Source: a virus. Taken from it: a stretch of DNA of 39,758 nucleotides. The number at the start of each line of letters is the position of its first letter. Position 1 is the stretch's first letter. The stretch lies in the UHGV virus genome UHGV-0465656; one strand, written 5' to 3'. Positions 1-19,922 of the stretch are shown one piece after another. The notes under the pieces are model-generated. The model was not told the origin of the DNA, made no database searches, and saw only the letters and a list, made by a program, of their open reading frames with translations. The position numbers were made by a program, and so were the translations under genes.

Positions 1-55
1 GCTCACCTGTCAGCGGGTCGCGGTAGATGAAGACTTTCTCCTTCTTCTCTTCTAC
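1..55. repeat. 55-bp inverted duplication: exact reverse complement of 1283..1337 (portal codons [19 protein letters not shown])
   Basis: Base-by-base comparison; identity stops at position 56 versus 1282. Confidence 0.9.
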
Positions 56-727
56 CTCGTAATACTCAGCGACGTAGACGACATCATTCGATACCCACGG
101 AAACAGCCATGTATCGTTCGGATTCTGGAAAGATGGCAAGGTATCCGGATCAATACCGTAATCCTCTGCGAACTCTTTCCAGCCATTGCGTGACAAGGCG
201 TTAATCACCGTGCAGTGCTTAGCGTCGCTCTTATCCATCTGCTTGCTGTTGGCGTCCCATATGACGTGTGAGCAGGCTTCATGGATTGGAAGGCGTCGGA
301 TTACCTGATTGTTGCTTGTTGGGTCGTTGTCTTCGTACTGCGTGACCAGACGCCATGCGCCAACGCCAGACTCTATCTGCTCACGAACGCCAACGTTAAC
401 GGCAATTTTTGCCGTGTTATGGCGCATATCAGTACGATACATCCCCATCAGCACATCGGCAGCATCAGGATTAGCTCCGTCTTTTGGTCTGAATAGAACG
501 TCGATAGGGTTCCGGCGCATCTCTGCGACCAGCTTCCTGACCACCGGGCGAACAACATCAAATTGTCCGCGATATTGCAGGGTGGTGTAGTTTGATAGCC
601 AGTCATCCCATTGCGACACTCGGCTAAAATACAGGTCATTTGTCGCCTCGGTTCTGGCTTCATCGCTCGCCATCCAGTCTGCGTCAAACTTACACAGAAT
701 GGAATTGAGTCTGTTTTCGTCGGCCAT
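1..727 (-). CDS. Portal protein, N-terminal segment (aa 1-242), inverted relative to its continuation at 1338..2764; runs off window start
   Basis: Reverse-complement translation from ATG at 727-725: [43 protein letters not shown]..., matching recalled P22 gp1 N-terminus; absent from ORF track because no stop in window. Confidence 0.85.
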
Positions 728-1289
728 TTAAGTTCTCCGTGCGATGGGCCTGATTGGGGCTGGTATCTTTTTCTCTTTTGGTTTTTTGATGTCGCGCATC
801 ATTTTTGCGAAGCGGCGCATCATGTATGCATAGCGAACGGCGGATAGCACGTCGTCGTTAAGCTTGACGATTTTCCCGTTTTCATCACGGTGATAGAGGC
901 GGAACTCCTCAAAGAATGGCTCACAGGTGTTGAATACTTTGAAGCGACCATCAAGCATCATGTCGCGCAATTCAGTGATTCCAGGCTCAACAGCATTACC
1001 GCCATCAGGCCATGTCGCATGATCCTGCAACATCATAAATCCAGCGTCTGCATACTGCCCTTTGAGCTGCTCACCGCCGCCCTTCTCGTGCTGGTTTCCG
1101 TCATGAGGCCATGCGGTTGGCACTTTATGCGCCCATGATTTAACAGCTCCCCATGCCTGAACAGCTGTTTTTTCTTTCGCCTTCCACACGCGTGAAACGT
1201 AGATTGTGTCTGCGTCCTTATCCCACCAAAGCTGAACCTGCGCCTGTGGGTGATCCCATCCGAAATCCATCCCGCCAATTACGTAGAAG
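728..1289 (-). CDS. Terminase large subunit, C-terminal segment (..[31 protein letters not shown].. to stop at 730-728)
   Basis: In-frame part of ORF 728..1501(-); continues the TerL N-terminal part that ends at the window end; N part 331 aa + C part 168 aa = 499 aa, the recalled length of P22 gp2. Confidence 0.85.
1235..1289. repeat. 55-bp inverted duplication: exact reverse complement of window end 39704..39758 (terL codons [17 protein letters not shown])
   Basis: Base-by-base comparison; identity stops at 1290 versus 39703. Confidence 0.9.
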
Positions 1290-2764
1290 AGAAGAAGGAG
1301 AAAGTCTTCATCTACCGCGACCCGCTGACAGGTGAGCCGGTCAGCTATTACCAGCAGGATATCAAAGACGTCATCGACGACCTGGCTAATCGTGGATTCA
1401 TTAAGGTAGCAGAGCGCAAGGTGAAGCGTCGGCGTGTGTATAAGTCGATCATCACCTGCACGCAGATACTGAAAGACCGCGAGAAGATAGCTGGAGAGCA
1501 TATCCCAATCGTTCCTGTGTACGGCGAATGGTCATTCGCTGGTGACAAGGAGTGCTACGAGGGCGTGGTAAGGCTGACGAAAGACGGTCAACGCCTTCGT
1601 AACATGATCATGTCGTTCAACGCCGATATTGTTGCTCGTTCACCGAAGAAGAAACCGACCTTCTTCCCTGAGCAAATCGAAGGCTACGAATACATGTACG
1701 GTGGAAATGATGACTATCCGTACTATCTGCAGAACAGGACCGATGAAAACGGTAACGACCTGCCGATTGGTCCAATCTCCTACATGGAAAACCCTGAAGT
1801 GCCGCAAGCCAACGCTTACATGCTTGAGGCTGCCACCAACGCAGTGAAAGAGGTGGCTAGTCTTGGTGTGGATGCGCAGGCAGCAAACGGTCAGGTCGCT
1901 TTCGATACCGTCAATCAACTGAACATGCGGGCAGACCTTGAGACATACGTGTTTCAGGATAACCTGGCTACCGCAATGCGACGTGATGGCGAGATTTATG
2001 CCTCAATGGTCAACGATATTTATGACGTTCCTCGCCATGTAACGCTGACTCTTGAAGACGGAAGCGAGAAAGACGTTCAACTCTACGCGCAAGTTGTAGA
2101 TTACCAGTCCGGCAATGTGGTCACACTCAACGACATTCGCGGTCGCTATGAGTGCTATACGGACGTTGGGCCATCCTTCCAGAGCATGAAGGAACAGAAC
2201 CGCGCAGAGATTCAGGAGTTACTTACCAAGGTTCCGCAAGGTACTCCAGAGTTCCAGATGCTGATGCTGCAATACTTCACGCTGCTTGACGGTAAAGGCG
2301 TCGAGATGATGCGAGAGTACGCGAACAAGCAACTGGTGATGATGGGGCTGAAGAAACCAGAAACACCTGAAGAGATGGAGATGGTACAACAGGCACAACA
2401 ACAGCCGCAGCAGCCATCAGCAGAGCAAATTCAGGCGCAGGGCATCCTTCTGCAAGGTCAGGCTGAATTGCTCAAGGCAGAGAACCAACAGGCGCAGATT
2501 CAGGTTGAGGCCGCCAAGGTTGAAGCCCAAAACCAACTCAACGCCGCGAAGATCGCAGAGATCTTCAACAATATGGACCTCGACAAGCAGGCAGAACTGC
2601 GTGAGTACCTCAAGCTCGTAGGTCAATTCCAGCAACAGCGCAGCAAAGATGCTCGTGCTAACGCTGAGCTGCTTCTTAAAGATGCAGACCAGACTCATTC
2701 ACAACGCATGGATTTCGCGAATCTTATGCGTCAAGTTCAAATCCCCTCCGGCGGAGTAGCCTAG
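1283..2764 (+). CDS. Portal protein, C-terminal part (P22 gp1-like); the M at 1250 in the ORF track is a junction artefact
   Basis: ORF 1250..2764: ..[47 protein letters not shown].. matches recalled P22 portal; joining 727..1 to 1338..2764 gives a 717-aa in-frame portal. Confidence 0.9.
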
Positions 2765-2789
2765 ACACCTCAATAAGAGAGAGTTAACC

Positions 2790-3701
2790 ATGGACCAAAC
2801 CACCGACATTCAGGCTTCTGAAGAATTAACCCTGCCCGGCAATCATGCAGCGGCATCTGCTGATGGCTTAGTTGTCGATAATGCCAACGACAACGCAGGT
2901 CAGGAAGAAGGCTTCGAGATTGTCCTGAAAGACGATGAGAAACCAAAACAAGACCCGGCAACTAATGCTGAATTTGCCCGTCGCCGCATCGAACGCAAAC
3001 GCCAGCGTGAGCTTGAGCAGCAGATGGAAGCGGTTAAGCGTGGAGAGTTGCCGGAGCACCTGCGGGTGAACCCTGAGTTACCAAAACAACCAGACCCTAA
3101 CGATTATCTTTCCGAAGATGCACTGGCTAAGTACGACTATGACCAGAGCCGCGCACTGGCTGCCTTCCAGCAGGCAAACAGTGAATGGCAGATCAAGGCT
3201 ATGGACGCACGAAGCCAGGCTGTAGCAGAGCAGGGCCGCAAAACTCAGGAGTTCACCCAGCAATCAGCGCAATACGTCGAGGCAGCCCGTAAGCACTACG
3301 ACGCAGCGGAAAAGCTCAACATCCCTGACTATCAGGAGAAAGAGGATGCATTCATGCAACTGGTGCCGCCAGCAGTCGGTGCCGACATCATGCGCCTCTT
3401 CCCGGAGAAATCCGCTGCTCTCATGTATCACCTTGGTGCTAATCCTGAGAAAACACGCCAGTTGCTGGCGATGGACGGGCAATCCGCGCTGATTGAACTC
3501 ACTCGACTGTCAGAACGTTTAACTCTCAAGCCTCGAGCCAAGCCTGTTTCAGAAGCCCCGTTACCTGATGAACCAATTCAGGGACACGCTGTTGCTGCAA
3601 ATATCTCTGCGATTGAAAAGCAGATGGAAGCGGCAGCAAACAAAGGGGATGTAGAGACATACCGCAAGCTCAAGGCGCAACTGAATAAAGGAATTCGATA
3701 A
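2790..3701 (+). CDS. Scaffolding protein (P22 gp8-like, 303 aa)
   Basis: Position between portal and coat; length identical to P22 gp8; conserved block [42 protein letters not shown]. Confidence 0.9.
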
Positions 3702-4223
3702 TTATTTCGATATCGTGATGTTGTTTTCCTCGTCAAACTTTCTGATTACTTCTTTCGCCTCTTCGAATGAAGAACATACTTTTTGCACTCTTGCATTAAG
3801 CAGTCGCTTATGAGCGATCCATCTTTTCCGCGTGTTGCAAAAGTAAACTCCAGATATTCCGCTGGAGTTATTTTTAGATAGTTTGATTCTATTCCTTTGG
3901 TTTGCTGATTTTTTCACAAGACGAAGATTTTCAATTCTGTTGTCGTGGCGAATCCCATTTATATGGTCAATTTCCATGCCTTCTGGAATATCTCCGTTAA
4001 ACATTACCCATACGATGCGGTGTGCTAGCCACTTAATGCCGTTAATTCTTATGCGGATATATCCATTGCTTTCTAAAAGACCAGCAACTTTCCCAGCGTG
4101 TTTTGCATTCCAAACGTTGTGATAGTTGCGATTCTTTTTGTTGTTGAAAAATTCAGAGCTTCTGGCTTTCCAAACCAAAGAACCATCGCGGTATTCGAAG
4201 TATTCATTCAGTTCCATGCTCAT
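3702..4223 (-). CDS. HNH homing endonuclease with AP2-like DNA-binding domain
   Basis: Motif EIDHINGIRHDNRIENLRLV (HNH) plus SGISGVYFCNTRKRWIAH (AP2-like); opposite strand to flanking scaffold/coat genes; visibly AT-rich. Confidence 0.8.
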   Translation of the reverse strand: MSMELNEYFEYRDGSLVWKARSSEFFNNKKNRNYHNVWNAKHAGKVAGLLESNGYIRIRINGIKWLAHRIVWVMFNGDIPEGMEIDHINGIRHDNRIENLRLVKKSANQRNRIKLSKNNSSGISGVYFCNTRKRWIAHKRLLNARVQKVCSSFEEAKEVIRKFDEENNITISK

Positions 4224-4290
4224 AACCCTAATGCGCTATATGTTGATATAACAATAGTATAGCACATAAAGAAAGTAAGGTATTCAATAT

Positions 4291-5586
4291 ATGACTCTCA
4301 AAGAAGGGCAGTTAGTTACTTACGCTATCGATGAAATCATCGAAACCGTCCAGAACCTGACGCCAATGGCGTCCAAAGTGACAAAATACACCCCTCCGGC
4401 AGAATCCATGCAGCGTTCAAGCAACACCGTGTGGATGCCTGTTGAGCAGGAAGCGCCAACGCAGACTGGCTGGGATTTAACTGGCAACGCAACTGGGATT
4501 CTGGAGCTGTCCGTGAAATGCAACATGGGCGATCCGGATAACGATTTCTTCGAGCTTCGTGCAGATGACCTGCGTGATGAGCGTTCTTACCGTCGCCGCA
4601 TCCAGGCATCCGCCAAAAAACTGGCGAATAACATTGAGTCAGCAATTGCCAAACAGGCAACTGAAATGGGCTCGCTTGTTGTTCACGATACCCGCGCAAT
4701 TGGTCCATCTACTGGCCTGTCTGGCTGGGATTTTGTGTCTGATGCAGAGCGCCTGATGTTCTCCCGTGAGCTAAACCGCGATATGGGCATCAGTTACTTC
4801 CTGAACCCTGACGATTACCGTAAAGCAGGCCGCAACCTGGTAGATGGTGACATCTTTGGGCGCGTTCCTGAAGAAGCGTATCGCAACGGTACTATTCAGC
4901 GTCAGATTGCTGGCTTTGATGAAATTCTTCGCTCACCGAAACTTCCGGCAGTTACCAAGTCAACCGCTACTGGTGTAACTGTTTCTGGTGCGCAGAAGTT
5001 TAAGCCGCAGGCATACACCCTTGATACCGATGGTAACAAAGAGAACGTCGACAACCGTGTTGCAACGGTGACCGTATCCTCCACCACCGGATTTAAGCGC
5101 GGCGACAAAATCAGTTTCACCGGTGTGAAATTCCTGTCTCAGATGGCGAAGAACGTGCTAACTGATGATGCGACTTTCTCAATCACCCGTGTGATCGATG
5201 GTACTCACATCGAAATCACGCCGAAACCGATTGCACTGGATGACGCGTCACTGACAAAAGAAGAGAAGGCTTACGCTAACGTAAACACCTCTCTTGCTGA
5301 TACCACTCCGGTAAACGTTCTGAACGTGGCAACAACCACCGCTAACGTGTTCTGGGCTGATGACTCAATCCGCCTGCTGTCTCAGCCGATTCCGGTAACC
5401 CATGAACTGTTTGCTGGCATGAAAACGTCTTCCTTCAGCATTCCAGGCATTGGTGTTAACGGCATCTTCGCAACGCAGGGTGATATCAACACTCTGTCTG
5501 GTAAGTGCCGTATTGCTGTGTGGTATTCAGCATGTGCTGTACGACCAGAGGCAATTGGTGTTGGTCTGCCTAACCAGACTGCGTGA
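4291..5586 (+). CDS. Major coat protein (P22 gp5-like, 431 aa)
   Basis: Near-colinear with recalled P22 coat: ..[64 protein letters not shown]. Confidence 0.92.
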
Positions 5587-5592
5587 TAACCA

Positions 5593-5617
5593 GAGGGAGC
5601 TTCGGCTCCCTTTTTTA
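5593..5617 (+). terminator. Rho-independent terminator after coat gene (GGGAGC-TTCG-GCTCCC + T6)
   Basis: Perfect 6-bp stem with TTCG tetraloop followed by TTTTTTA. Confidence 0.8.
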
Positions 5618-5630
5618 TCTGGAGACAAGC

Positions 5631-5855
5631 ATGACACACATGATCTTTCGTCATGGCGACATGAAGAAGTGGAAAGGCGTTAGCTACGACTTTGAAATCG
5701 TGAAAGCCGAAGAGCTTCAGGAATATCTGGATGCTGGCTGGTTTTCACATCCTGATGACCTTTTGAAGGATGTTGCAGAGCCAGAAGAAAAACAGCGTAA
5801 AAAGCCCGGTCGAAAACCTAAGGCGGCAGCAGATGAACCTGACAACGAAGGGTGA
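5631..5855 (+). CDS. Small hypothetical protein (74 aa, charged C-terminus)
   Basis: ATG at 5631 preceded by GGAGA; in-frame part of ORF 5583..5855; overlaps gp4 start by 23 nt. Confidence 0.4.
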
Positions 5856-6333
5856 TTTAGTTCTTGCGGCATTACGTAAGCTCGGTGTGGCATCAAATGC
5901 CACGTTAACCGATGTCGAACCGCAGTCTATGGAAGATGGCGTCAACGACCTTGAAATGATGATGGCTGAATGGCTTGGCGGTGATGCGTCACCAGGTATC
6001 AACGTTGGCTACATTTTCGCTGATGCAGATGTCGCTCCAGATCCTGGCGATGAACACGGTTTATCAAATAACGCTATCAATGCCGTCATTTTCAACCTTG
6101 CCTGCCGCATTGCTCCGGATTATGCGCTGGAAGCGTCAGCAAAACTTATAACCACTGCCAGATACGGGAAAGAGCGACTCGTCAAACTGTCTGCAATGGA
6201 CAGAGCAAAAGCCGCTAAATGTAAGTCCGGTTATCCAAACCGTATGCCTGTTGGCAGTGGAAACCAGTTGGCGAAGTGGAACGGTTGGAATTACTTCCAC
6301 CGAAAGGAACCTTGCGATAATGGGAGCGAATAA
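5833..6333 (+). CDS. Head completion / tail accessory protein gp4-like
   Basis: From ATG 5833: [33 protein letters not shown].., matching recalled P22 gp4 N-terminus; gene order. Confidence 0.8.
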
Positions 6334-7751
6334 TGCCGATTCAGCAACTTCCGCTTATGAAAGGTGTCGGCAAAGACTTTAGAAACGCTGACTATATCGA
6401 CTATCTGCCAGTGAATATGTTGGCTACACCCAAAGAAATCCTCAACAGCAGCGGATATCTTCGCTCATTCCCGGGCATTGCCAAACGTTCTGATGTGAAC
6501 GGCGTATCGCGAGGCGTCGAGTACAACATGGCGCAGAATGCTGTTTATCGCGTGTGTGGTGGCAAGCTGTATAAGGGCGAAAGCGAGGTTGGTGATGTTG
6601 CCGGAAGTGGTCGCGTATCAATGGCGCATGGTCGAACATCACAGGCGGTAGGCGTTAATGGTCAACTGGTCGAGTATCGCTATGATGGCACGGTTAAAAC
6701 CGTCTCAAACTGGCCTACAGACAGCGGATTCACACAGTACGAGTTAGGTTCAGTTCGCGACATTACGCGCTTACGTGGGCGTTATGCGTGGTCAAAAGAC
6801 GGAAATGATTCATGGTTTATCACTGACCTTGAAGACGAATCGCATCCTGACCGATACAGCGCACAATATCGTGCAGAGTCGCAGCCTGACGGCATCATCG
6901 GTATCGGCACATGGCGAGACTTCATCGTCTGCTTTGGTTCATCGACGATTGAATATTTCTCCCTGACTGGCGCAACCACCGTTGGTGCTGCTTTGTATGT
7001 CGCACAGCCATCACTAATGGTGCAAAAAGGCATCGCCGGAACTTACTGCAAAACGCCGTTTGCTGATTCCTATGCGTTTATCAGCAATCCGGCAACAGGT
7101 GCTCCGTCTGTGTATATCATCGGCTCCGGTCAGGTATCACCAATAGCCAGCGCGAGCATTGAGAAAATTCTCCGCTCCTACACTGCTGATGAACTGGCTG
7201 ATGGTGTGATGGAGTCTCTGCGATTTGATGCGCATGAGCTGCTGATTATCCATCTTCCGCGCCATGTTCTCGTGTACGACGCATCTTCAAGCGCCAATGG
7301 TCCGCAATGGTGTGTGCTGAAAACAGGCCTGTATGACGATGTGTACCGCGCTATCGACTTCATTTACGAAGGCAATCAGATAACGTGTGGCGATAAGCTG
7401 GAATCGGTTATCGGCAAATTGCAGTTCGATATCAGCAGCCAGTACGACAAGCAACAGGAACACCTGTTGTTTACTCCGTTGTTCAAAGCGGATAACGCAA
7501 GAGTGTTCGACCTTGAGGTTGAATCTTCAACTGGCGTTGCGCAGTACGCTGACCGCCTGTTCCTCTCTGCAACCACTGACGGAATCAATTACGGACGTGA
7601 GCAGATGATTGAACAGAATGAACCGTTCGTTTACGACAAACGTGTTTTGTGGAAGCGAGTCGGGCGCATCAGGAAAAATGTCGGCTTCAAATTGCGCGTT
7701 ATCACGAAGTCACCTGTCACTCTGTCTGGCGCTCAGATAAGGATTGAGTAA
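6333..7751 (+). CDS. Tail hub / head completion protein gp10-like (472 aa)
   Basis: Same length as P22 gp10; position after gp4; start overlaps gp4 stop. Confidence 0.8.
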
Positions 7752-8599
7752 TGGCGGATTCGAATCTCAATGTGCCGGTAATCATTCAGGCTACACGGCT
7801 CGACACATCAGTCCTTCCACGCAATATCTTCTCGCAGTCGTATCTGCTTTACGTTATCGCACAGGGCACTGATGTTGGTAACGTGGCTAACAAGGCCAAC
7901 GAGGCCGGACAGGGCGCTTATGATGCACAAGTCAGGAACGATGAGCAGGATGTGATTCTCGCTGACCATGAGCAGCGAATTTCTGCTGCAGAAGCAACGC
8001 TTGTTAATCATGAGGAGCGAATCAGCCAGGCAGAATCAACTCTTCAGGAACATGAAACACGAATCACTCAGAATGAAAGCGATATTGCGTCGCTTGATAC
8101 CAGAGTTCAGTCGCTGGAGTCGCAGGTTTCAGACCATGAAACGCGCATTGATGCTCTGGAGTATGCAACCACACGCAAGAAGTCAGAGGTTGTTTACTCT
8201 GGCGTATCAGTAACCATCCCGACAGCGCCGACCAACCTTGTTAGCCTGCTGAAAACGCTCACGCCGTCATCCGGGACGTTGGCACCATTCTTCGACACTG
8301 TTAACAACAAGATGGTTGTGTTCAACGAGAACAAAACCTTGTTCTTCAAGTTGTCGATTGTCGGGACGTGGCCCAGTGAAACCGCCAACAGGTCAATGCA
8401 ACTAACATTTTCCGGTTCTGTTCCTGACACACTGGTAAGCAGTCGCAACTCGGCGACAACAACCGATAACATCTTGTTAGCTACGTTCTTCAGCGTGGAT
8501 AAAGACGGCTTTCTTGCCACAAATGGCAGCACGTTAACCATTCAGTCAAATGGTGCGGCGTTTACTGCCACAACCATCAAGATAATCGCGGAGCAGTAA
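7751..8599 (+). CDS. Tail needle protein (gp26-like N-terminus, heptad coiled coil, C-terminal knob-type extension)
   Basis: N-terminus [43 protein letters not shown] matches recalled P22 gp26; repeated HE.RI heptads; 282 aa versus 233 in P22. Confidence 0.85.
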
Positions 8600-9054
8600 T
8601 GATTCAGTTCAAACCAACGCGAAACATCGACCTGATCGAAGCAGTCGGAAATCACCCTGACATTATTGCCGGGAGCAACAACGGTGATGGATACGACTAC
8701 AAACCTGATTGCCGTTACTTTGAGGTGAACGTGCACGGGCAGTTCGGCGGCATTGTTTACTATCAGGAGATTCAGCCGCTTACATTCGATTGCCACGCCA
8801 TGTACCTGCCAGAGATTCGCGGATTCAGCAAGGAAATCGGGCTGGCGTTCTGGCGATACATTCTGACTAACACCACCGTTCAGTGCGTCACATCGTTCGC
8901 TGCACGCAAATTCCGCCACGGGCAGATGTACTGCGCAATGATTGGCCTTAAGCGTGTAGGAACCATCAAGAAATACTTCAAAGGCGTGGATGACGTGACG
9001 TTTTACAGCGCCACACGCGAAGAACTAATCGACTTCCTGAATCACGGGAGATAG
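8599..9054 (+). CDS. gp14-like head-associated protein
   Basis: Position between tail needle and ejection proteins as in P22; 151 aa; assignment by synteny only. Confidence 0.5.
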   Translation: MIQFKPTRNIDLIEAVGNHPDIIAGSNNGDGYDYKPDCRYFEVNVHGQFGGIVYYQEIQPLTFDCHAMYLPEIRGFSKEIGLAFWRYILTNTTVQCVTSFAARKFRHGQMYCAMIGLKRVGTIKKYFKGVDDVTFYSATREELIDFLNHGR

Positions 9055-9056
9055 CC

Positions 9057-9749
9057 ATGTTATATGCATTTAAGCTGGGCAGAAAACTGCGCGGCGAGGA
9101 ACCTTATTGCCCTGAAAAGGGTGGGAAAGGTGGCAGTTCTGATAAAAGCGCAAAGTATGCCGCAGAAGCTCAGAAGTATGCAGCAGACCTGCAAAATCAG
9201 CAGTGGCAGACGATCATGAAAAACCTTGCTCCGTTCACGCCTCTTGCGGAGCAGTATGTTAACCAGTTGCAGAATCTTTCCAGTTTAGAAGGTCAGGGGC
9301 AGGCACTTAATCAGTATTACAACTCTCAGCAGTATAAAGACCTTGCAGGTCAGGCGCGTTACCAGAGTCTTGCTGCTGCGGAGGCGACGGGTGGACTTGG
9401 TTCGACAGCCACAAGCAATCAACTGGCTACGATCGCGCCGACACTCGGTCAGTCTTGGTTATCAAACCAGATGAGCAATTACAACAATCTGGCAAACGTT
9501 GGGCTTGGTGCGCTGCAAGGTCAGGCAAACGCCGGGCAGACGTACGCCAACAACATGAGCAGCATTGCACAGCAAAGCGCAGCACTTGCCGCTGCTAATG
9601 CCAATAAACCATCAAGTCTTCAGACTGCAATTAGCGGTGGCACGTCTGGTGCGATTGCCGGTGCAGGTCTTGCCAGCCTTTTGGGAACATCAACGCCTTG
9701 GGGCGCTGGCATTGGTGCTGGTATCGGATTGCTTGGCTCGTTGTTTTAA
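9057..9749 (+). CDS. Ejection (internal virion) protein gp7-like
   Basis: N-terminus MLYAFKLGRKLRGEEPYCPEKGGKGGSS resembles recalled P22 gp7; 230 aa; Gly/Ala-rich C-terminus. Confidence 0.7.
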   Translation: MLYAFKLGRKLRGEEPYCPEKGGKGGSSDKSAKYAAEAQKYAADLQNQQWQTIMKNLAPFTPLAEQYVNQLQNLSSLEGQGQALNQYYNSQQYKDLAGQARYQSLAAAEATGGLGSTATSNQLATIAPTLGQSWLSNQMSNYNNLANVGLGALQGQANAGQTYANNMSSIAQQSAALAAANANKPSSLQTAISGGTSGAIAGAGLASLLGTSTPWGAGIGAGIGLLGSLF

Positions 9750-9758
9750 GGGGTAATC

Positions 9759-11090
9759 ATGGCTACTTGGCAAGGAACAAACGGCGGATTGTTGGCTGGT
9801 ATCGGCGGCGTCAACTCAAACGCTCCGAGCGTAAATGACATCGGCAATACGCTTCAGCTTATCAGGCAGAACAATGATATTGAGCGTTCAGGCGCTAACA
9901 ATGTTGGGCTGACTGCTTTGCAAGGCCTTTCAGGTATTGCGGGGGTGTTTCAGCAGGAAAAGCAGGCTCAGCGGCAGAAAGAATTTCAGCAGGCATACGC
10001 TAATGCTTATGCGTCTGGTGATCGCGGTGCTTTGCGTCAGTTGGCTACTCAATATCCAGAACAGATTGAATCCGTTCGTAAAGGCATGGGATTCATTGAT
10101 GAAGATCAGCGTAATTCTATCGGCACCTTAGCGGCTGGCGCACGCCTTGCGTCATCGTCTCCAGAAGCAATGCAATCATGGCTGCAAAACAACGCCGGTG
10201 AGTTAGCTCGTGTTGGCGTTAATCCTCAGGACGTCGCTCAGATGTACCAACAGAACCCGCGGCAGTTCGGCGAATTTGTCGATCACCTGGGGATGAACAG
10301 TCTCGGACCCGAAAAATACTTTGACCTACAGGATAAAATGCAGGGTCGCCAGGTTACCATGCGCGGTCAGGATCTGGATTCGCAAACCGCCGCTCGGAAT
10401 CAGGCAATCACAATGCGCGGGCAAGATATCCAGGCGAATTTAGGTCAGCAGCGCATTAATCTGGACGCAGAAACAAACCGCATTAACAACGAAAATAAGC
10501 GCCTTGACCGGATGCTATCAGCAGAAACTAACGACCTGAAGCGCCAGGAAATACAGAGCCGCATAGCAGCCAACAACCAGCAGTTGCAGCAGAAGCAGCA
10601 AGCGCTAAATGATGGCTACAAAGACGGCATCAACACCCTCACAACCAGCATGTTCACTCTGAACGATATCGTTAGTTCTCCTTCACTTAAGAGCATTACA
10701 GGCTTACGTGGAGTAATCCCCAACGTTCCAGGCTCACAGGCTGCAGACACTCAGGCACGACTTGATACCTTTAAATCCCAAGCATACCTGACAGCGGTTC
10801 AGGCCATGCGAGGCATGGGCGCACTTTCTGATGCCGAGGGCAAAAAGCTCGACCAGGCTGTTGGTTCGCTGCAGAACTCGCAGAGCGAGGAGTCCTTTCG
10901 TCGCAACGCTGGCGTCATCCTGAACACGCTCAACCAGAAGCGTAATGAGGCGGTTGGTAAGTACGTTCAGCAAAACGGTATCAAGCGAGTGGAAGCTCCT
11001 CAGGCTTCTATAGATTACCTGAAGCAGCACCCCGAGCTGTCAATCGACTTCATTAATCGCTACGGATATCTTCCATCTTTGGGGCAGTAA
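9759..11090 (+). CDS. Ejection protein gp20-like
   Basis: Synteny (second of three ejection-protein genes); Q-rich coiled-coil composition. Confidence 0.65.
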   Translation: MATWQGTNGGLLAGIGGVNSNAPSVNDIGNTLQLIRQNNDIERSGANNVGLTALQGLSGIAGVFQQEKQAQRQKEFQQAYANAYASGDRGALRQLATQYPEQIESVRKGMGFIDEDQRNSIGTLAAGARLASSSPEAMQSWLQNNAGELARVGVNPQDVAQMYQQNPRQFGEFVDHLGMNSLGPEKYFDLQDKMQGRQVTMRGQDLDSQTAARNQAITMRGQDIQANLGQQRINLDAETNRINNENKRLDRMLSAETNDLKRQEIQSRIAANNQQLQQKQQALNDGYKDGINTLTTSMFTLNDIVSSPSLKSITGLRGVIPNVPGSQAADTQARLDTFKSQAYLTAVQAMRGMGALSDAEGKKLDQAVGSLQNSQSEESFRRNAGVILNTLNQKRNEAVGKYVQQNGIKRVEAPQASIDYLKQHPELSIDFINRYGYLPSLGQ

Positions 11091-13721
11091 ATGGCTAATT
11101 ACCGTGATTTGTTAGAGCAGGCTGGCGCACGTTACGGTGTGCCAGAAGGGTTGATGACTGCACTGGGTGCCAAGGAGTCTTCTTACAACCCTGCCGCAGT
11201 AAGCTCCGCCGGGGCTGTAGGATTGACTCAGGTCATGCCTGGGACATGGCGTGATATGGGTTATACCGATGAGCAAATGCAAAACCCCGAATATCAGGCT
11301 GACGCTGGCGCGCGCTATCTGGCAAAGATGTACCAGCAGTTTGGTAACTGGCGTGACGCTCTTCAGGCTTATCACGACGGTCCCGGCAACGTTATGAAGG
11401 CAAAGCGTGGTGAATATACGCCAGGACCTGAAGGCCGCGGTTACGTTGATGATCGCTTTGCTCAATGGGCGGGTGACCCGGTGACAGACTCAACAGTCGA
11501 ACAGCGCGCCACCTCTGCAAAGGTACATCCTCAGCAAGACCCTAACAACCCGTTTGCACAACTGGAAGTACAGTCATCCGAACAAGTATCGGCATCAGGT
11601 GTGCAGTCAGACCCAAATAATCCATTTGCTCAGATTGAGCAGCAGGCAGCCAGTCAGCAGCCACCTCAACCCGTAAGTTCTGTCGCACCGAAACCTGTTC
11701 AGCAACAAACAGTTAATCAGGCCAATAATGAACCAGCACGTGAAGAACCATCATTGATGCAACAAGCTGGCGATTGGCTCACAGGTGGTCAAAGTGCAGG
11801 GCAAATTGCAGAGCAGGCTGGTCGTGGTCTGGTAAACATACCATTCGACGTATTACAGGGCGGCGCAAGCCTGATTAATGCAATCAGTCAGGGGCTTGGT
11901 GGCCACAAGGTTTTGGATGATGTTTATCGCCCTGTCGATCGACCGACAGACCCTTACGCACAAGCCGGTGAAACAATTGGTGGGTATCTCCTGCCAATTG
12001 GCACAGCGGCAAAAGCTGCTGGAGCGACAGCAAAGCTCGCAGGAGACATCGGTTCCGCAGGAAACATGATTGCCGGTTCTCTTGCTGATGCTGCAAATCA
12101 GGAGGGTGATTTTGCACAAAATGCTGCCATTAACGGTGGTATCAATATTGGTGCTCAAGGCGTTATTTCAGGTGTCGGGCGCGTTATTGCGCCAAGGGTT
12201 TCACAGGCTCTTGGTGGTGCAGCACTGAATTCTGCTAATGATGTTTCCAGGATGGCAAAGTCAGGTGCTGGGCGTCAGTCAATTGCCAGTCAGGCCGCTA
12301 ATGTGTCCGAAGATGTAGCAAAAGCGGCTGAGTCTGCTGGAATTGATATAAACGCATTAACACCAGGAATGCGATCTGGAAGTCGTGGAATTGCACAAGC
12401 CGAAGGGATATTGGCATCCGAACCAGGAATTGTTCAGGATGCACATACTAGGGCTTTTAGTGAAATACAGTCGAAATTCCACTCAGCACTTGATGAACTT
12501 GGTGCTGAGGCTGGATCTGCATCAGAAAAAAGTGCAGCCATAAAACAAAGGGTTTTAGCAAGTATTGATAAAATGAAGAACTCAGAAAAGGCAGCATGGG
12601 ATAGCGTCCGCTCCACGATGCCTGACGCAAAGGCCAGAATGTCAAACCTGAACGCTACAATTCAGGGTGATATTTTGGCTGGCATGCCGCTAACTCCTGA
12701 GATGAAACAATTTGCATCTGCTTATGCTAAAACTGGTAAAAAAGGAATCACGTTTGATGCCATGAAGGCATGGCGAAGTAAACTTGCTGACGCTGAGCAG
12801 AAGTATATAAGGTCTGGTGAGGCAAATACGGCAAGGCGCATGGCGGAGCTTCGTGATGCAGCAACGGAAGATATGCGCATAATGGCTCAAAATGGCGGTT
12901 TTCTTGATGACTGGCAAAAAGCTAATGATCTATCAAAAGCAAGATTTACAGCACAAGAACAGGCTGAAGCAGCGTTTAGAAACCTTGCAACTGATCAGTT
13001 AGTCACTGATGGTATTAAAGCCTTGCAAAATTCATCAAAAAGTGGGACAGGAAAGTTTCATCAGATTATTGGCGCACTGCCAGAGTCTGAGCGATCTCCA
13101 GCAATTGCATCAATATTACAAGATGCGGTATCGCAAGGGGTGCGTGGCGGTAAATCAGAGTCTGCTGGCGTATTCCATATAGCGTCGATCCTTACGCCGC
13201 AGAACATTGCTGCCATTAGCAGGCACTCGCCAGAAATGGGTAAGATTGCTAGGGCATACAGCGACCTTGCCAGAGCAGCAACCAGACCACTGCGATATGT
13301 AGAGCATACGGGACGCTCTATACCGGCAATTAACTCTCTTGAGCAAGGACTGCCAAAAGCTGTCATGACAGTACTCAATGCAATAGGCAATTCAACATCA
13401 GGGGCTATTGTTGGTACCACTGGTGGAGGGATTGTTGGCGGTGTTGTGGGGGCTGTTTCTGGATCTATAGCTAAAGGGACGATAGAAAAGTTAGCTGCAT
13501 CCCGCAGTGGTCGTTACGCTATTGAAAAGGCTGTTCAAGAGGCAACAAAGGCAGTTAAGGTTGGGGCAAGTGATGGTGCATTAGCGGCGGCTGAACGCAG
13601 ATTTATGGCAAATAAGGCCGCCGTAAAAGCAATACGCGATGCAGTTGGAAACGAAGAGTTCCAGCGTTTGTCGAGGGCTGGGATTGTCGCCTCGTTAAGC
13701 GGTATGAATGAATATGAATAG
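11091..13721 (+). CDS. Ejection protein (gp16 position) with N-terminal lytic transglycosylase (SLT) domain; 876 aa
   Basis: N-terminal SLT signature [34 protein letters not shown]; DPNNPFAQ duplicated; internal AT-rich segment ~12300..13560. Confidence 0.75.
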
Positions 13722-13723
13722 CT

Positions 13724-14209
13724 TTATCTAATGTTGCTGCTACTGTTGCATGTGACGGTGTTTCCAAATCCTGAATTGCAGTTTGTATATGTGTCAACGC
13801 GTGTTGGGTAAGGTTGAGTTATAACAGGCTGGCGCGCTTTTTGCTCGATCGCTTGCATTGTGTTTACAGCCTGATAATTCAATAAAGCCTGCTGGAATGC
13901 TTGGCTTTGCGCTATTTGTTGGGCTTGTTCTTGGCTTTGTAATTGAACATAAAGATTCTGAAGCTCAAGTCTTGCCTGTGCGTCACTTATCTTGCCTTCA
14001 TCGACACCTTGCCCGAGCATCTTCGCAGCAAGGACATACAGCTTAGGTGTTGGTGCTGATGCCATGCGTGAGTCGTTCTTCACGCTGGCATCAAGGCAAT
14101 TAGCCATATCACTAAGCTTTGGATAGCGTTGTTCGCAACTTGCTTGGTAGTCACTTACTTTTGCGCATCCAGCCAGCAGAAGCGGGATAATTAACAGTGA
14201 TTTTTTCAT
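13724..14209 (-). CDS. Lipoprotein (signal peptide + lipobox LLAGC), Q-rich coiled-coil, unknown function
   Basis: MKKSLLIIPLLLAGCAK..; last gene of the mnt operon; convergent with the ejection-protein gene stop 2 bp away. Confidence 0.7.
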   Translation of the reverse strand: MKKSLLIIPLLLAGCAKVSDYQASCEQRYPKLSDMANCLDASVKNDSRMASAPTPKLYVLAAKMLGQGVDEGKISDAQARLELQNLYVQLQSQEQAQQIAQSQAFQQALLNYQAVNTMQAIEQKARQPVITQPYPTRVDTYTNCNSGFGNTVTCNSSSNIR

Positions 14210-14213
14210 ATGG

Positions 14214-14459
14214 TTAACTCTCCTTAGTTTTGCTCATGATCCCATTCATGTCTTTTGGTAGATACTTATGAATTGGCCAATCCATGAACGCAAGTGCTAG
14301 CCACGCAACCACGTTGAATCCAGGGATTGTTAAACATACCGCCATCTTCCAGTCAAAACCAGCTTTCTTAGATATTTTTAAAGCAGGTATAAAAAAGATG
14401 AAAACGAAAAAAATCACCATAATAATCAATGATAATGGCGACCCTTGTTGTTGCTCCAT
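14214..14459 (-). CDS. Small membrane protein (two predicted TM helices), unknown function
   Basis: Hydrophobic stretches LSLIIMVIFFVFIFFIPAL and VVAWLALAFMDW; AT-rich; immediately follows mnt. Confidence 0.6.
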   Translation of the reverse strand: MEQQQGSPLSLIIMVIFFVFIFFIPALKISKKAGFDWKMAVCLTIPGFNVVAWLALAFMDWPIHKYLPKDMNGIMSKTKES

Positions 14460-14461
14460 GG

Positions 14462-14704
14462 TTATCCTCCATCTCTTACACGTTTTAACACATCAATAGC
14501 TACATCAAACGCCTCTTGCTCAGACTTTGTCAGGATTCGACTACTTGAAGGTATTAGCTGCCCTTTATGAATTTTTATCCATAGTTCGATAGCTGAAATA
14601 ATCTCTGCGTTTATCGAGCGGCGATTTGTTGCAGCAATATGCGTAAGTTGCTGTTTTATCTCATCAGGCATTCTTACGTTGAATTGTGGATCATTTCTAG
14701 CCAC
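14462..14704 (-). CDS. mnt: Mnt-like ribbon-helix-helix repressor (GTG start)
   Basis: (M)ARNDPQFNVRMPDEIKQQL..NRRSINAEII resembles recalled P22 Mnt; AGGAG 6 nt upstream of GTG. Confidence 0.8.
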   Translation of the reverse strand: MARNDPQFNVRMPDEIKQQLTHIAATNRRSINAEIISAIELWIKIHKGQLIPSSSRILTKSEQEAFDVAIDVLKRVRDGG

Positions 14705-14723
14705 GTCGTTCTCCTTTTGTTTG

Positions 14724-14766
14724 TTGACATGCTAGAACGGTAGTAGTACACTTTCAATAGTAGTAC
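14724..14766 (+). promoter_or_regulatory. Pant-like promoter (-35 TTGACA 14724..14729, 17-bp spacer, -10 TACACT 14747..14752) overlapped by two direct TAGTAGTAC repeats (14741..14749, 14758..14766)
   Basis: Divergent intergenic region between mnt and arc; repeats overlap -10 and start region. Confidence 0.55.
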
Positions 14767-14797
14767 GGTACTATCAACGAGTGAAATGGAGTTGAAT

Positions 14798-14956
14798 ATG
14801 CAAGGTGCAAGAAAAATGCCTCAGTTCAATTTGCGGTGGCCTAAAGAAGTATTGGATTTGGTGCGCAAGGTAGCTGAAGAGAACGGGCGATCTGTTAACT
14901 CTGAGATTTACAAGCGAGTGTTGGACAGCCTGAAGAGAGAAGGGATAACGGTATGA
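14798..14956 (+). CDS. arc: Arc repressor (52 aa)
   Basis: MQGARKMPQFNLRWPKEVLDLVRKVAEENGRSVNSEIYKRVLDSLKREGITV, near-identical to recalled P22 Arc; below ORF-track size cutoff. Confidence 0.9.
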   Translation: MQGARKMPQFNLRWPKEVLDLVRKVAEENGRSVNSEIYKRVLDSLKREGITV

Positions 14957-15174
14957 GGTTTATTGAGGTTGATGAGATTGGCTATGAGAATGCACTTGGT
15001 AGAGGTAAATCTTTAGTTAACATTGATGGCATTGAATCGATAAGGAGTGGTGAATTTACGGAGATCAGAATGATGTCAGGCGGAATCATTCCTTGCCGTG
15101 ACTCAGTAGAGTCAATCAAATCAAAAATGAGTGGTCAGTGGCTTTATAGCTACAGTGACTTACAAAAACAGTGA
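14953..15174 (+). CDS. Hypothetical protein (73 aa) between arc and ant
   Basis: ATGA overlap with arc stop; no recognisable motif. Confidence 0.4.
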   Translation: MRFIEVDEIGYENALGRGKSLVNIDGIESIRSGEFTEIRMMSGGIIPCRDSVESIKSKMSGQWLYSYSDLQKQ

Positions 15175-15204
15175 AGCCCCAACTGCGGTAACAGTCAGGG
15201 CTTC
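15173..15204 (-). terminator. Candidate terminator hairpin for an antisense (sar-like) RNA in the orf73-ant junction
   Basis: Stem GAAGCCC/GGGCTTC with inner ACTG/CAGT; on minus strand followed by ACUGUUUUUG. Confidence 0.3.
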
Positions 15205-15236
15205 GGTATCAACAAAACTTACGAGGTATTATTGAT

Positions 15237-16127
15237 ATGTCAAGCTTAGCAAAGTCAACTGTAAATTGCACTAATAGCATCATCATTTCCGACGTCAAGA
15301 TTCATATGGATTCAGAGGGGCGTTACTCGCTTAATGACCTTCATGTAGCGTCTGGGAAGGAGGAAAAACATCAGCCAGCTTTCTTCATGCGTAGAAATGA
15401 AACTATTGAATTGATTAATGAAATTTTTAATTCTGCGAATATGCAGAATAAGAATCCCGTCATTTCTAAGAAAGGTCGATATGGTGGAACCTATGTGTGC
15501 AAGGAGCTTGTTTACTCCTACGCCATGTGGATTAGCGCAGCATTTGCGCTGAAGGTTATCCGTGCATATGACGCAATGGTTACTGCCACACAGGAGAGGA
15601 AGACTATTGGCGGTAAAACTTCAGTAGCTGAACGCACACCGCTACGCGATGCAGTAAACATGCTGGTAGGAAAGAAAGGACTTCGCTATGACGATGCATA
15701 CAATATGGTTCATCAGCGTTTTGGTATTGACAGCATTGATGAACTTTCAATTGAACAAATCCCGCTGGCCGTAGAGTACATCCACAGGGTAGTGCTTGAA
15801 GGTGAGTTCATCGGCAAACAAGAGAAGAAAGCAAACGAGCTTTCTGCAAAAGAAGCAAACAGCCTTGTATGGTTATGGGATTATGCCAACCGTTCACAGG
15901 CATTATTCCGCGAACTGTATCCGGCGCTAAAACAAATTCAATCGAACTATTCCGGCAGATGCTACGACTACGGTCATGAATTCTCGTATGTTATCGGAAT
16001 GGCGAGAGACGTTTTAATCAATCACACACGAGATGTTGATATTAATGAGCCAGACGGACCAACGAATCTTTCCGCATGGATGAGACTTAAGAATAAAGAA
16101 TTACCTCCTTCAGTACATAACTACTGA
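15237..16127 (+). CDS. Antirepressor-like protein with KilA-N-type N-terminal domain
   Basis: Position after arc as P22 ant; 296 aa; N-terminal [33 protein letters not shown]. Confidence 0.6.
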
Positions 16128-16146
16128 CAGATAACCAACGCAACGA

Positions 16147-16170
16147 CCCAGCTTCGGCTGGGTTTTTTTA
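16147..16170 (+). terminator. Rho-independent terminator (CCCAGC-TTCG-GCTGGG + T7)
   Basis: Perfect stem, TTCG tetraloop, TTTTTTTA; downstream of ant-like gene. Confidence 0.8.
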
Positions 16171-16227
16171 TGCCCAAAATTCACCGTAGCCACGCTGCGG
16201 CGATTCCTTGCATCTGGAGCAAATTAA

Positions 16228-18144
16228 ATGACAGACATTACAGCTAATGTGATTGTATCGATGCCTTCGCAACTCTTCACTATGGCTCGTTCTTTTAAAG
16301 CCGTAGCCAATGGAAAAATTTATATCGGTAAAATTGACACTGACCCGGTAAATCCCGAAAACCAGATTCAGGTTTATGTGGAGAACGAAGACGGCTCTCA
16401 CGTTCCTGTTTCGCAACCAATCATCATTAACGCTGCTGGTTACCCGGTATATAACGGACAGATTGCTAAGTTCGTAACTGTGCAATGCCATTCTATGGCT
16501 GTTTATGATGCGTATGGATCGCAGCAGTTCTATTTCCCTAATGTGCTGAAGTATGACCCTGATCAACTTTCTTCGCGCTTATCATCTGATGATGGTGCTT
16601 CTTATATTTCATTTAAGAAGCCTTATGCTGATGCTGCAACCAGAAAAGCATCTGACTACTTTAATCAGGAAATTAATGTAGATGACTTTGGTGCGTATGG
16701 CGATGCCTACTTATTGAACGGAGAAGATAACCTAAGCAAGCATGACGACACACACGCATTTCAGGCCGCTCTGATTGCTGCGTGGCGTGCAGGTGGTGTT
16801 AAAGTAGTAGCCACTCCGTGGAAAAGCTATTACATCGCCGGTAAAGTTTATGTGTTGGCTTCAGAATCTCCATCTGACATTGAAGAAACTAATTTCCCTA
16901 ATCGTCGGGTGCAAGTGATCGATTTTCAGGGCGCTCGCATCGTAGGCCGCGACGATACTTCCGACGAAAATAACGTATTCATTGAGACTGGTTATATAGC
17001 TTCTAGTGGTGCTATATCTTCTGTATTTGGAAAGTCTGGTGAAGAGTATCTAACCATAGGAACAATAATTCGCAATGCCACACTGATTAATTTCTATCAG
17101 GGGTTACGTTTGCGGAATCATGTATTTGGATGCGAGGTTACAGATATTGTTGGAGTAAATGTCCAGCAGTTGGTTTACACTCAGCGCTGCTTTTACTCTT
17201 TATTTCGCAATCTTCAGTGCAATGGTACATATACTACTGGTCTGCATCGCTATCACTTTACTGATGAATGCAACATTCAGCCATTAGTATCGGTTCACAC
17301 AGGAGAGTGTGATGTAGGTTTTAAGTTTGAAGGTGCGGTAGAGGCACTTACGCTGTTCAACTGTGGTATTGAAAGTTTTCGTACTCACGGTGTTTGGATT
17401 GCAGGTGCATATAACATCAAGTTTGATTCATGCTACATAGAGTCAAACGAAAGCAATGTGTATGGGGTTATAGCAACGAGCGCAAATAACATTACGCTGG
17501 ATAACTGCTGGATTTACGGTAGCAGTATGAAAATGTTTGGTGCATTCGACGACAATACCAACGTAAGAATTATGCCTAATAACCGTATTGGAGGAGGGGC
17601 AGTTTGGTGGGACCTTAACGAAGGGTCTCCGTACAACCTTTCCGACATTCACTGGCAAACAGATATAAAACCAGGCGGTACAACACTACCTGCTGCATCC
17701 GCTAAAGAGGCCAGCACAGTAGACCAGACTATAGTTTTCTACCACCCGGATTTAGGACTTAGTTCAGTTGTAGGGAAAGCCAAACAGACCAGTAAATACC
17801 ACCCGCAGCTTGTTAACGGCAAAATGAGTAACGGTAGCTCTGCTGCACATACAGTTGGCGCAAGTGTCTCTACAGAGGTTTCAGGTTCAGACACTAGAGC
17901 AAAATGGACAACGCAAATACAATACTCTGATACACAGCTTATTTTTTTAGCATTGAAGATAGATCATAACTTGGGGACATGGTTTTGGTTAGGTGTTGTG
18001 GCAGGAGATAAAGCGATGGTTATTTCAACATCTGATGAATCAAAGACTCCGGTTATAAGTAATGAAAATGGGTTTGTCGTAGTAGAGAGTCCGCTTCTTA
18101 TGACGCCAATAAATGTTCATGGTGGAGAAATAAGATTGCTATAG
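16228..18144 (+). CDS. Tailspike protein: conserved P22-type head-binding domain (aa 1-~110) fused to a divergent receptor-binding domain
   Basis: N-terminus [60 protein letters not shown] matches recalled P22 gp9; remainder unlike P22 and AT-richer. Confidence 0.9.
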
Positions 18145-18272
18145 TTGACAAAACTATCATCAAATTCTTAATCGATCGATGACTTACTGTGGTTGATGAG
18201 ACAAAACTGATGAACACAAAGCTTTGTACTGGACTGCAAGGCTTTGTGCTATTCGATAGTTGTTAAGGTCGC

Positions 18273-19430: not shown

Positions 19431-19475
19431 GGGTAAAAATCCGGTGGGTAAAATTATTTTATCCACTTTTTACCC
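19431..19475. repeat. Arm-type repeats GGGTAAAA (19431..19438, 19446..19453) and TTTTACCC (19468..19475); further TTTTACCC copies at 19666..19673 and 19678..19685
   Basis: Five copies of an 8-mer or its reverse complement flanking the candidate att core. Confidence 0.5.
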
Positions 19476-19591
19476 GTCATGGAGTGCGGCTGTCAACGAT
19501 CTGACGCGAACCATTACGAACTGTGAATCTACGGAAGGCTTGATATTCAGGGGATTTTGCGGACTGGTACGGATGGGAGCGAACTGATAAA

Positions 19592-19606
19592 TGGTGTCCC
19601 CTGCAG
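19592..19606 (-). other. Candidate attP core: reverse complement CTGCAGGGGACACCA, matching the 3'-terminal 15 nt of tRNA-Arg (argW) as recalled
   Basis: Exact 15-mer in int-xis intergenic region flanked by arm-type repeats; argW sequence is from memory. Confidence 0.6.
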
Positions 19607-19679
19607 ACATCTACTTGAAGCGGCAGGGGATTGATTGGAATGGTGTTTTTTAGATGTGAGAAATATTTTACCCGCTATT

Positions 19680-19880: not shown

Positions 19881-19899
19881 GAGTGCTATCTCCGAATAG

Positions 19900-19915
19900 G
19901 GAATCGAACCTGCAA
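19900..19915 (-). other. tRNA-like T-arm fragment: reverse complement TTGCAGGTTCGATTCC
   Basis: 16-mer with canonical GGTTCGATTCC T-loop, immediately upstream of xis; not a complete tRNA. Confidence 0.5.
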
Positions 19916-19922
19916 ATCAGGT

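Follow-up and report, generated by a model that had tools for sequence, protein, structure and literature searches.

A single fold-back junction in a K = 55 assembly graph as the probable source of the split terL and portal genes in a P22-like phage contig

Introduction

Blocks of DNA reversed between inverted repeats are known from the invertible segments of phage Mu (Gin), phage P1 (Cin) and Salmonella (Hin). These systems combine recombination sites of ~26 bp with a neighbouring serine invertase; their junctions are two and reciprocal, and their alternative open reading frames (ORFs) are intact. The locus described here also shows a block reversed between inverted repeats, but has none of these defining features. 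Fold-back inversions and template switching at short inverted repeats in vivo have the same geometry and the same dependence on microhomology as our locus, although the junction described below does not recur in any related genome. A further source of inverted joins is multiple displacement amplification (MDA), whose chimeras are inverted in 85% of cases, are primed at complementarities of 2-21 nt and mostly join sequences less than 10 kb apart (Lasken & Stockwell 2007, PMC1855051).

Repeats may also be generated by the assembler. Nodes of default metaSPAdes graphs overlap by 55 bp (PMC12133742), and the authors of CheckV found assembler-derived repeats of 55 bp to be common in viral contigs (PMC8116208). 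As in our contig, the k-mer terminal overlaps of de Bruijn assemblers (the 55-, 77- or 99-bp "DTRs" of PMC8116208) are equal to K in length and bounded by contig ends, and on circular or circularly permuted viral genomes they mark a closed, complete circle, as they do here. In contrast to those overlaps, the ones in our contig are inverted and pair an internal copy with a terminal one, one edge of the graph being traversed in reverse through a chimeric edge.

Results

A P22-like phage with split terL and portal genes

The window, that is, the whole stretch of DNA analysed, comprises the 39,758 nucleotides of UHGV virus genome UHGV-0465656. Its source record, ENA ERZ807525 NODE_10_length_39758_cov_75.579478, carries a SPAdes-style name. 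The phage itself is unremarkable, a temperate P22-like phage of E. coli with a complete genome in which terL and portal are colinear. Pfam domains of a P22-type module (GP3_package, Terminase_6C, P22_portal, Phage-scaffold and P22_CoatProtein) were found, together with a P22 Head_binding domain in the tailspike (E 4e-66). The only recombinase among the 20 ORFs scanned is an IntS-type tyrosine integrase with an arm-binding domain (18273..19466), adjoining attP.

The underlying genome matches phages IME10, Dewey, Louie, APC_JM3.2 and HZ41 as well as a prophage integrated at argW in E. coli E62. Outside the terL-portal stretch, the structural module shares about 94-97% identity with these phages over the roughly 53-68% that aligns. 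The early region is mosaic and closest to HK446, HK97 and Sf101, showing the ordinary lambdoid mosaic differences from the P22-like relatives. ARAGORN detected no tRNA genes, and none of seven ORFs of unknown function had a match to defence systems in PADLOC.

In the orientation of the contig, TerL is cut at aa 331 and the portal protein at aa 242, the pieces of both genes being distributed over both strands:

1..727, minus strand: portal codons 1-242, with the start ATG at 727..725; a 242-aa partial gene in the public record
728..1234, minus strand: C-terminal part of terL, aa 332-499 and the stop TAA at 730..728 (168 aa plus stop), from the translation
1338..2764, plus strand: remainder of portal, comprising the last 2 nt of codon 243, codons 244-717 and the stop, from the translation
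38300..38788, plus strand: terS, a P22 gp3-type small terminase gene directly upstream of terL (Pfam GP3_package, E 8e-31)
38766..39758, plus strand: N-terminal part of terL, aa 1-331 (331 codons), running off the contig end, from the translation

These reading frames agree with those assigned to the pieces in the initial annotation. In the public record, Pfam Terminase_6C sits on a chimeric ORF of 257 aa (728..1501), and P22_portal is assigned to the portal fragment called there. When window positions 1338..39758 were joined to the reverse complement of positions 1..1234, the rebuilt sequence formed a circle of 39,655 bp, which on translation yielded a TerL of 499 aa and a portal protein of 717 aa, as the initial annotation had proposed for a re-inversion of this piece. 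The rebuilt genome contains no repeated k-mers of at least 17 nt in either orientation.

Two exact inverted duplications meet at a 7-bp microhomology

Positions 1..55 are the reverse complement of 1283..1337, and positions 1235..1289 that of 39704..39758. Both pairs are identical at 55/55 positions and extend by zero bases further either way, as had been claimed on first inspection. A repeat search of the window found no other long inverted repeats, the only other pair being one of 23 nt at 83% identity. At the internal join, the 7-bp microhomology GTAGAAG that had been proposed at 1283..1289 was recovered, with its inverted partner CTTCTAC at 39704..39710. To the left of 1283 the sequence is the reverse complement of 39711..39758, while to the right of 1289 it is the sense strand of portal.

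The contig holds one novel junction, with both wild-type junctions also present, and, since an inversion needs two novel junctions, the underlying event is most probably a fold-back and not a two-ended inversion. Among simulated random inverted joins, a microhomology of at least 7 bp occurred at a frequency of only 4.5e-4, and the pattern of inverted duplications is not due to chance. In the rebuilt genome, 1,282 bp separate the two fold-back sites. As this genome contains 6,202 inverted-repeat pairs of 7-mers within 2 kb, and 123 pairs of at least 10 nt, the chosen 7-bp site is not special. Collapse of small-k repeats was also considered as a source of the join and was ruled out by the lack of any repeat of 17 nt or longer in either orientation.

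Relatives are colinear and lack the junction

The re-inverted terL-portal stretch, including both restored joins, aligned in one piece and with 100.0% identity over 1,542 nt to the prophage of E. coli E62, in which the annotated gene order is terS, terL (499 aa), portal and scaffold. The rebuilt stretch likewise aligned in one piece, at 97-98%, to IME10, Dewey, CurroJimenez, APC_JM3.2, Louie and HZ41. Overall, terL and portal were colinear in 199 E. coli genomes (among 5,426) and in about 100 phage records (among about 50,000). When the window was used as given, the alignment broke at 1283 in every matching phage and E. coli genome.

The inverted junction itself was spanned by 0 of the 5,426 E. 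coli genomes and by none of about 110 matching phage records (50,697 searched). The central 39-mer of the junction had 0 matches in the collections viral_contigs and metagenome_contigs, both of which lack the source contig itself.

A K = 55 graph with one junction edge reproduces the contig

We simulated a K = 55 de Bruijn graph from the colinear circle and one junction-spanning read. The graph resolved into exactly three unitigs, spanning 1283..39758, 1..1289 and 1235..1337, and its edges and vertices map onto the contig as follows:

1..1289, minus strand: edge S, reversed (K = 55 unitig); the true segment between the end and the start of the main edge, with a 55-bp overlap at each end
1..55, no strand assigned: 55-mer vertex rc(V1), a copy of 1283..1337 (exact inverted pair); contig end
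1235..1337, plus strand: junction edge E (third unitig), 103 bp or 48 (K+1)-mers, joining the reverse complement of terL 39711..39758 to portal from 1290 via GTAGAAG
1283..39758, plus strand: main edge M (K = 55 unitig), 38,476 bp, running round from codon ~225 of portal to codon 331 of terL
39704..39758, no strand assigned: 55-mer vertex V2, a copy of 1235..1289 beginning with CTTCTAC (exact inverted pair); contig end

Every walk using all three edges once was 39,758 bp long, equal in length to the observed contig, while the plain cycle measured 39,710 bp. A control graph without the junction edge gave a single cycle with no branch. The ends of the contig fall exactly where the single-junction graph has no unused edges left. 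Edge S (1..1289) maps on the minus strand to positions 20082..21373 of the E62 prophage locus L002 (99.9%), and the main edge is colinear with IME10, Dewey and the E62 prophage. The junction edge is the only sequence of the contig that is absent from the colinear genome.

These results support the contig being a valid walk through one fold-back junction edge of a K = 55 graph of the SPAdes family, and we regard it as almost certain that the genome is colinear and the contig a product of the graph walk. Since the contig is a walk through the junction edge, the reads must have contained the k-mers of the junction. This had been predicted by the initial annotation, and the graph model, in which the contig cannot be obtained without the junction edge, points to the same requirement. 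The further proposal of an artefact, from a k = 55 graph or a chimeric template, in place of a functional inversion is upheld by the SPAdes-style name, the simulation, the match to E62 and the absence of the junction elsewhere. The term "k = 55 misjoin" is correct as regards the graph artefact but not as regards a false k-mer overlap, since the walk is valid and passes through a real junction edge.

Discussion

The whole of the observations is quite probably explained by a colinear phage, a fold-back chimera and a K = 55 graph walk. The genome is a normal, closed P22-like circle of 39,655 bp with the order terS-terL-portal-scaffold, and the sequenced DNA would also have held molecules with a single fold-back junction, in which the bottom strand of terL to the right of CTTCTAC (39704) was joined via 7 nt to the top strand of portal from GTAGAAG (1283), 1.28 kb away. 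One such junction would create two branch vertices, the 55-mers 1283..1337 and 39704..39758, cutting the circle into M (38,476 bp) and S (1,289 bp), and would add the 103-bp edge E. An assembler that output the walk rc(S)-E-M, with each edge used once, would place the 1.29-kb piece in reverse at the start of the contig and leave a 55-bp inverted duplicate at each seam.

As to the junction molecules, it is fairly likely that they were made in vitro. The 3' end of a polymerase product may have been displaced and re-annealed on the complementary strand, by template switching as in MDA or possibly during PCR or library preparation. The junction has the same inverted A'C form as the MDA chimeras of Lasken and Stockwell (PMC1855051), being inverted and single, with 7 nt of complementarity and sites 1.28 kb apart, all within what is described for them. 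Blunt ligation is an unlikely source because the 7 nt far exceed the expectation (P = 4.5e-4). The coverage of the junction may count against an origin in vitro. Under its defaults, metaSPAdes disconnects an edge whose coverage is below 1/10 of that of its neighbours (PMC5411777); therefore, if these defaults were used, the junction edge may have been covered roughly at least 7x, compared with about 75x for the contig. In contrast to typical one-off MDA chimeras, the junction was apparently covered well enough to survive graph cleaning, and about 7x may be high for a single random chimera made in vitro, unless an early amplification step gave rise to it or PCR duplication raised its share.

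The same graph-walk artefact would arise from a biological junction, formed in vivo by a template switch at the 7-bp inverted repeat in a replication fork or a rolling-circle intermediate. The resulting inverted dimers, large quasi-palindromic molecules with a 1.28-kb spacer, would have to persist as a sizeable defective subpopulation. Joins mediated by 7-bp annealing are also a signature of in-vivo template switching, which the present junction fits. The expected presence of junction k-mers in the reads favours this origin too, as does the survival of the edge through graph cleaning; with metaSPAdes at its defaults, such survival would mean a share of about 10% or more of local coverage (PMC5411777). 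We nevertheless find a biological junction unlikely: it is absent from every other genome, phage and contig collection searched, and a rearranged copy without intact terL and portal would be a dead end for replication or packaging. Moreover, the repeat pair belongs to a set of thousands and is by no means the longest in it, which suits stochastic mispriming better than a favoured site in vivo. There is accordingly only a slim chance that inverted dimers, possibly around 10% of the replicating phage DNA, represent a natural species of defective genome.

A different case would be a genuine inversion with two ends, in which the terL-portal segment of 1.28 kb had been reversed between the 7-bp inverted repeats in a defective variant beside the wild type. 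The observed junction looks like the right-hand junction of such an inversion, and a graph that also held the reciprocal junction could still give this contig. With both wild-type junctions and one novel junction only in the contig, with contig ends that match the exhaustion of a single-junction graph, with two essential genes destroyed and with the inversion found in neither the 5,426 E. coli genomes nor the ~110 matching phage records (50,697 searched), we hold this to be highly improbable. It is also very unlikely that junction reads were lacking altogether and that scaffolding or gap closing put two separate edges together in a wrong orientation where their ends happened to overlap by 7 bp. 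Ends that overlap only very slightly can be merged by SPAdes scaffolding, which speaks for such a merger. However, a circle without the junction edge has no branch, as seen in the single cycle of the control graph, and would not be cut at these positions, nor is there an internal repeat of at least 17 nt to break the graph. Furthermore, the cut points match the 7-mer pair to the base, for which the chance is about 6e-5 for a 7-mer.

At first sight, the reversed block with inverted repeats on either side might suggest a programmed, site-specific invertible segment of the Hin/Gin/Cin type. The 55-bp repeats, however, were created by the walk, and in the real genome inverted identity at the flanks amounts to no more than 7 bp. 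A scan of 20 ORFs detected no domain of a resolvase or invertase, and the neighbours are terS, terL, portal, scaffold and HNH genes. The inverted state breaks terL and portal, so that the two orientations are not both intact, and it was never seen in relatives. A programmed invertase switch is thus refuted on its defining features (sites, invertase gene and genes intact both ways), and its probability is negligible. A hairpin-telomere or ITR phage was likewise ruled out, since the phage is P22-like with headful-type terS and terL, and its inverted copies, exactly K in length, fall within coding regions.

The biological weight of the arrangement is small, as the phage is ordinary. It does, though, offer a clean example of how one chimeric junction edge can lead a SPAdes-type assembler to output the full genome with one of its edges reversed. 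The signature could be screened for: two inverted duplicates of length K, each touching a contig end and overlapping by a short microhomology. Contigs bearing it could be found automatically and then repaired. As the contig has no direct or inverted terminal repeat, completeness tools will not call closure. Two hallmark genes are split in the contig, and public protein collections hold the artefactual products derived from it: a 257-aa "Terminase_6C" fusion, a 399-aa portal fragment and a 242-aa partial protein. The assembly index has no entry for the chimeric ORF at 1250..2764 and one for the ORF at 728..1501.

Terminal duplicates and split genes

Direct comparison bore out both 55-bp inverted duplicates described in the initial annotation: positions 39704..39758 of the window are the perfect reverse complement of 1235..1289, and 1283..1337 that of 1..55, with neither match extending by even one base. 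A search of the entire window for repeats turned up no further notable inverted repeat, the next best being 23 nt at 83%. The duplicates share GTAGAAG (1283..1289), where they overlap, and its complement, CTTCTAC, starts the terminal 55-mer at 39704. The reading frames also place the parts of terL and portal where they had been reported:

38766..39758 (+), terL codons 1-331
1234..728 (-), terL codons 332-499 and stop
727..1 (-), portal codons 1-242
1338..2764 (+), remainder of portal

Joining 1338..39758 to the reverse complement of 1..1234 gives a sequence of 39,655 bp whose two ends close on one another. Its translation yields an unbroken TerL of 499 aa followed directly (TAAATG) by a portal protein of 717 aa, as the earlier proposal of a re-inversion had it. 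No terminal repeat, direct or inverted, is present in the contig, and standard circularity checks would therefore overlook the completeness of the genome. Its ends have in common only a 7-bp direct repeat, CTTCTAC (49..55 and 39704..39710), a by-product of the assembly walk.

Colinear order in related genomes

Comparison with independent genomes indicates that the rebuilt terL-portal order is the real one. The rebuilt stretch (3,127 nt) aligned in one piece, over 100% of its length and at 97-98% identity, with eight records, which represent six P22-like phages of E. coli (IME10, Dewey, CurroJimenez_Bas106, APC_JM3.2, Louie and HZ41). Around 100 Salmonella P22-like phages also aligned to it at lower identity, and all are annotated in the order terS, terL, portal. 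With the window as given, no phage record aligned across 1283, each splitting there into two places. Window 800..1800 was matched in 218 of 5,426 complete E. coli genomes, with every alignment ending at 1283 and the junction covered in none of the 5,426.

The re-inverted sequence over both restored joins (1,542 nt) was colinear in 199 E. coli genomes. It matched as a single piece, at 100.0% identity, the P22-like prophage of E. coli strain E62 (NZ_CP022393.1, 4180006-4181547), which is integrated beside tRNA-Arg/yfdC and annotated with terS, terL (499 aa), portal, scaffold, HNH, coat and further genes. Using blastn, the E62 locus was tiled continuously by window 38230..39758, then 1292..1 (-), then 1283 onwards, the alignments overlapping on E62 by 58 nt at the first join (55 exact plus 3 more with one mismatch) and by 55 nt at the second.

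Reproduction of the contig in a K = 55 graph

The source record, ENA ERZ807525, of which the window is the reverse complement, is named in the style of SPAdes (NODE_10_length_39758_cov_75.579478). Node overlaps in default metaSPAdes graphs are 55 bp (PMC12133742), and assembler-made terminal repeats accumulate at 55, 77 and 99 bp according to CheckV (PMC8116208). We simulated the K = 55 de Bruijn graph of the rebuilt circle with and without one junction-spanning sequence (window 1181..1400). The circle alone formed a single cycle, while addition of the junction sequence produced exactly three unitigs:

1283..39758, edge M, 38,476 bp
1..1289, edge S (reversed), 1,289 bp
1235..1337, junction edge E, 103 bp

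As the junction shares GTAGAAG with normal portal and CTTCTAC with normal terL, the first shared 55-mers on each side become the branch vertices. We enumerated all walks that reuse no edge or its reverse complement. Each walk that took the three edges once came to 39,758 bp, just as long as the contig; rc(S)-E-M (rc, reverse complement) was one such walk. The plain cycle M-S would measure 39,710 bp. In neither orientation does any k-mer of at least 17 nt recur in the rebuilt genome, so the join cannot stem from repeats collapsed at a smaller k (21 or 33). Because the circle stays uncut at these positions unless junction k-mers are supplied, the 48 junction-spanning 56-mers had to be in the reads, as the initial annotation had maintained. 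What looks like an inversion does not belong to the phage genome but arose when the assembler walked through one chimeric fold-back junction; the colinear relatives and the graph reproduction both support the earlier view of an artefact rather than an inversion within a functional genome.

In the public ENA record, gene calling on the artefact produced:

728..1501 (-), chimeric 'Terminase_6C' protein, 257 aa
1565..2764 (+), portal fragment, 399 aa
2..727 (-), partial gene, 242 aa

Artefactual proteins have thereby entered public collections, a warning that broken terL and portal fragments are already within such sets. The practical value lies in a signature that can be recognised and repaired.

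Nature of the junction

The contig retains both wild-type junctions, with terL continuous through 39704 and portal through the 55/56 boundary (-), and has only one novel junction. A single novel junction implies fold-back geometry (an inverted join, 'A'C'), whereas a balanced inversion needs two. A defective variant carrying a genuine two-ended inversion is an unparsimonious reading, and no relative shows one. The defining features of a programmed invertible segment are lacking, and this reading is excluded: inverted identity at the native flanks amounts to just 7 bp, the 20 ORFs scanned yielded no invertase domain, their sole recombinase being a tyrosine integrase adjoining attP, and the flipped state truncates two essential genes. 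A scaffolder merge made without junction reads leaves unaccounted for a graph break at precisely the 7-mer pair, and a genome with hairpin telomeres or ITRs fits neither the headful packaging module of P22 type nor the presence, inside coding sequence, of repeats exactly K long.

The fold-back join is annealing-mediated; among 400,000 random inverted joins simulated within this genome, microhomology of at least 7 nt occurred at a rate of 4.5e-4. The genome holds 6,202 inverted-repeat pairs of 7-mers within 2 kb and 27,993 within 10 kb, as well as 123 pairs of at least 10 nt within 2 kb, and the site is not a special one; the event appears stochastic rather than site-directed. Of the phi29/MDA chimeras described by Lasken & Stockwell (PMC1855051), 85% show inversion; priming is by a displaced 3' end with 2-21 nt of complementarity, and the segments joined are preferentially <10 kb from each other within one branched molecule. 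The junction fits this profile. Template switching in PCR or library preparation would give an identical picture, and the accession ERZ807525, sought for the amplification history of its sample, did not occur in the searchable literature. An in-vitro origin of the fold-back junction is most likely. The metaSPAdes defaults disconnect edges with <1/10 of the adjacent coverage (PMC5411777), so that, if these were used, the junction edge may have had roughly at least 7x against ~75x. Such coverage would point to a 'jackpot' chimera formed early on, to PCR duplicates or to a fold-back subpopulation that truly existed in vivo; that an abundant fold-back species of the phage DNA exists in vivo, a mildly novel reading, we consider improbable.

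The underlying phage genome

The underlying genome is that of a typical mosaic lambdoid podovirus. Its late and structural genes (1338..21000) are nearest to Dewey and IME10 (~96%), and its early and regulatory half (21001..39758) to HK446, HK97, HK544 and Sf101 (~96%). The genes identified comprise P22-type terS, scaffold, coat, a tailspike with a P22 head-binding domain, an Ant-like KilA-N protein, an IntS-type integrase, ERF, SSB, N, CI, O, NinB and Q; for the helicase, the assignment follows how related phages are annotated, not a scan. The ejection (DNA-transfer) proteins occupy 9057..13721:

9057..9749, assigned by position and relatives' annotation
9759..11090, scanned
11091..13721 (+), scanned, gp16-like, 876 aa

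At the N-terminus of this last protein is an SLT lytic transglycosylase domain (Pfam E 3e-25). In the E62 prophage the protein at its position measures 665 aa; the match to E62 at nucleotide level ends at ~10295. Antisense between scaffold and coat lies an HNH_3 homing-endonuclease-like gene (3702..4223 (-), 173 aa, Pfam E 4e-22), an insertion also annotated in the E62 prophage and hence shared among phages of this group. Four ORFs occupy classic 'moron' slots:

27043..27519 (-)
25777..26247 (-)
13724..14209 (-)
37638..38027 (+)

Among these positions, one overlaps the cI 3' end and lies just downstream, one is near N and one falls between the ejection genes and immI. The ORFs gave no Pfam or PADLOC match and match only PHROG families of unknown function.

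ARAGORN found no complete tRNA in the window. The integrase end (18214..19606) matches the E62 prophage to ~15 nt inside the flanking tRNA-Arg, beyond which the contig runs on into early-left genes. The contig therefore spans attP and derives from DNA that was excised, replicating or in virions, not from an integrated prophage.
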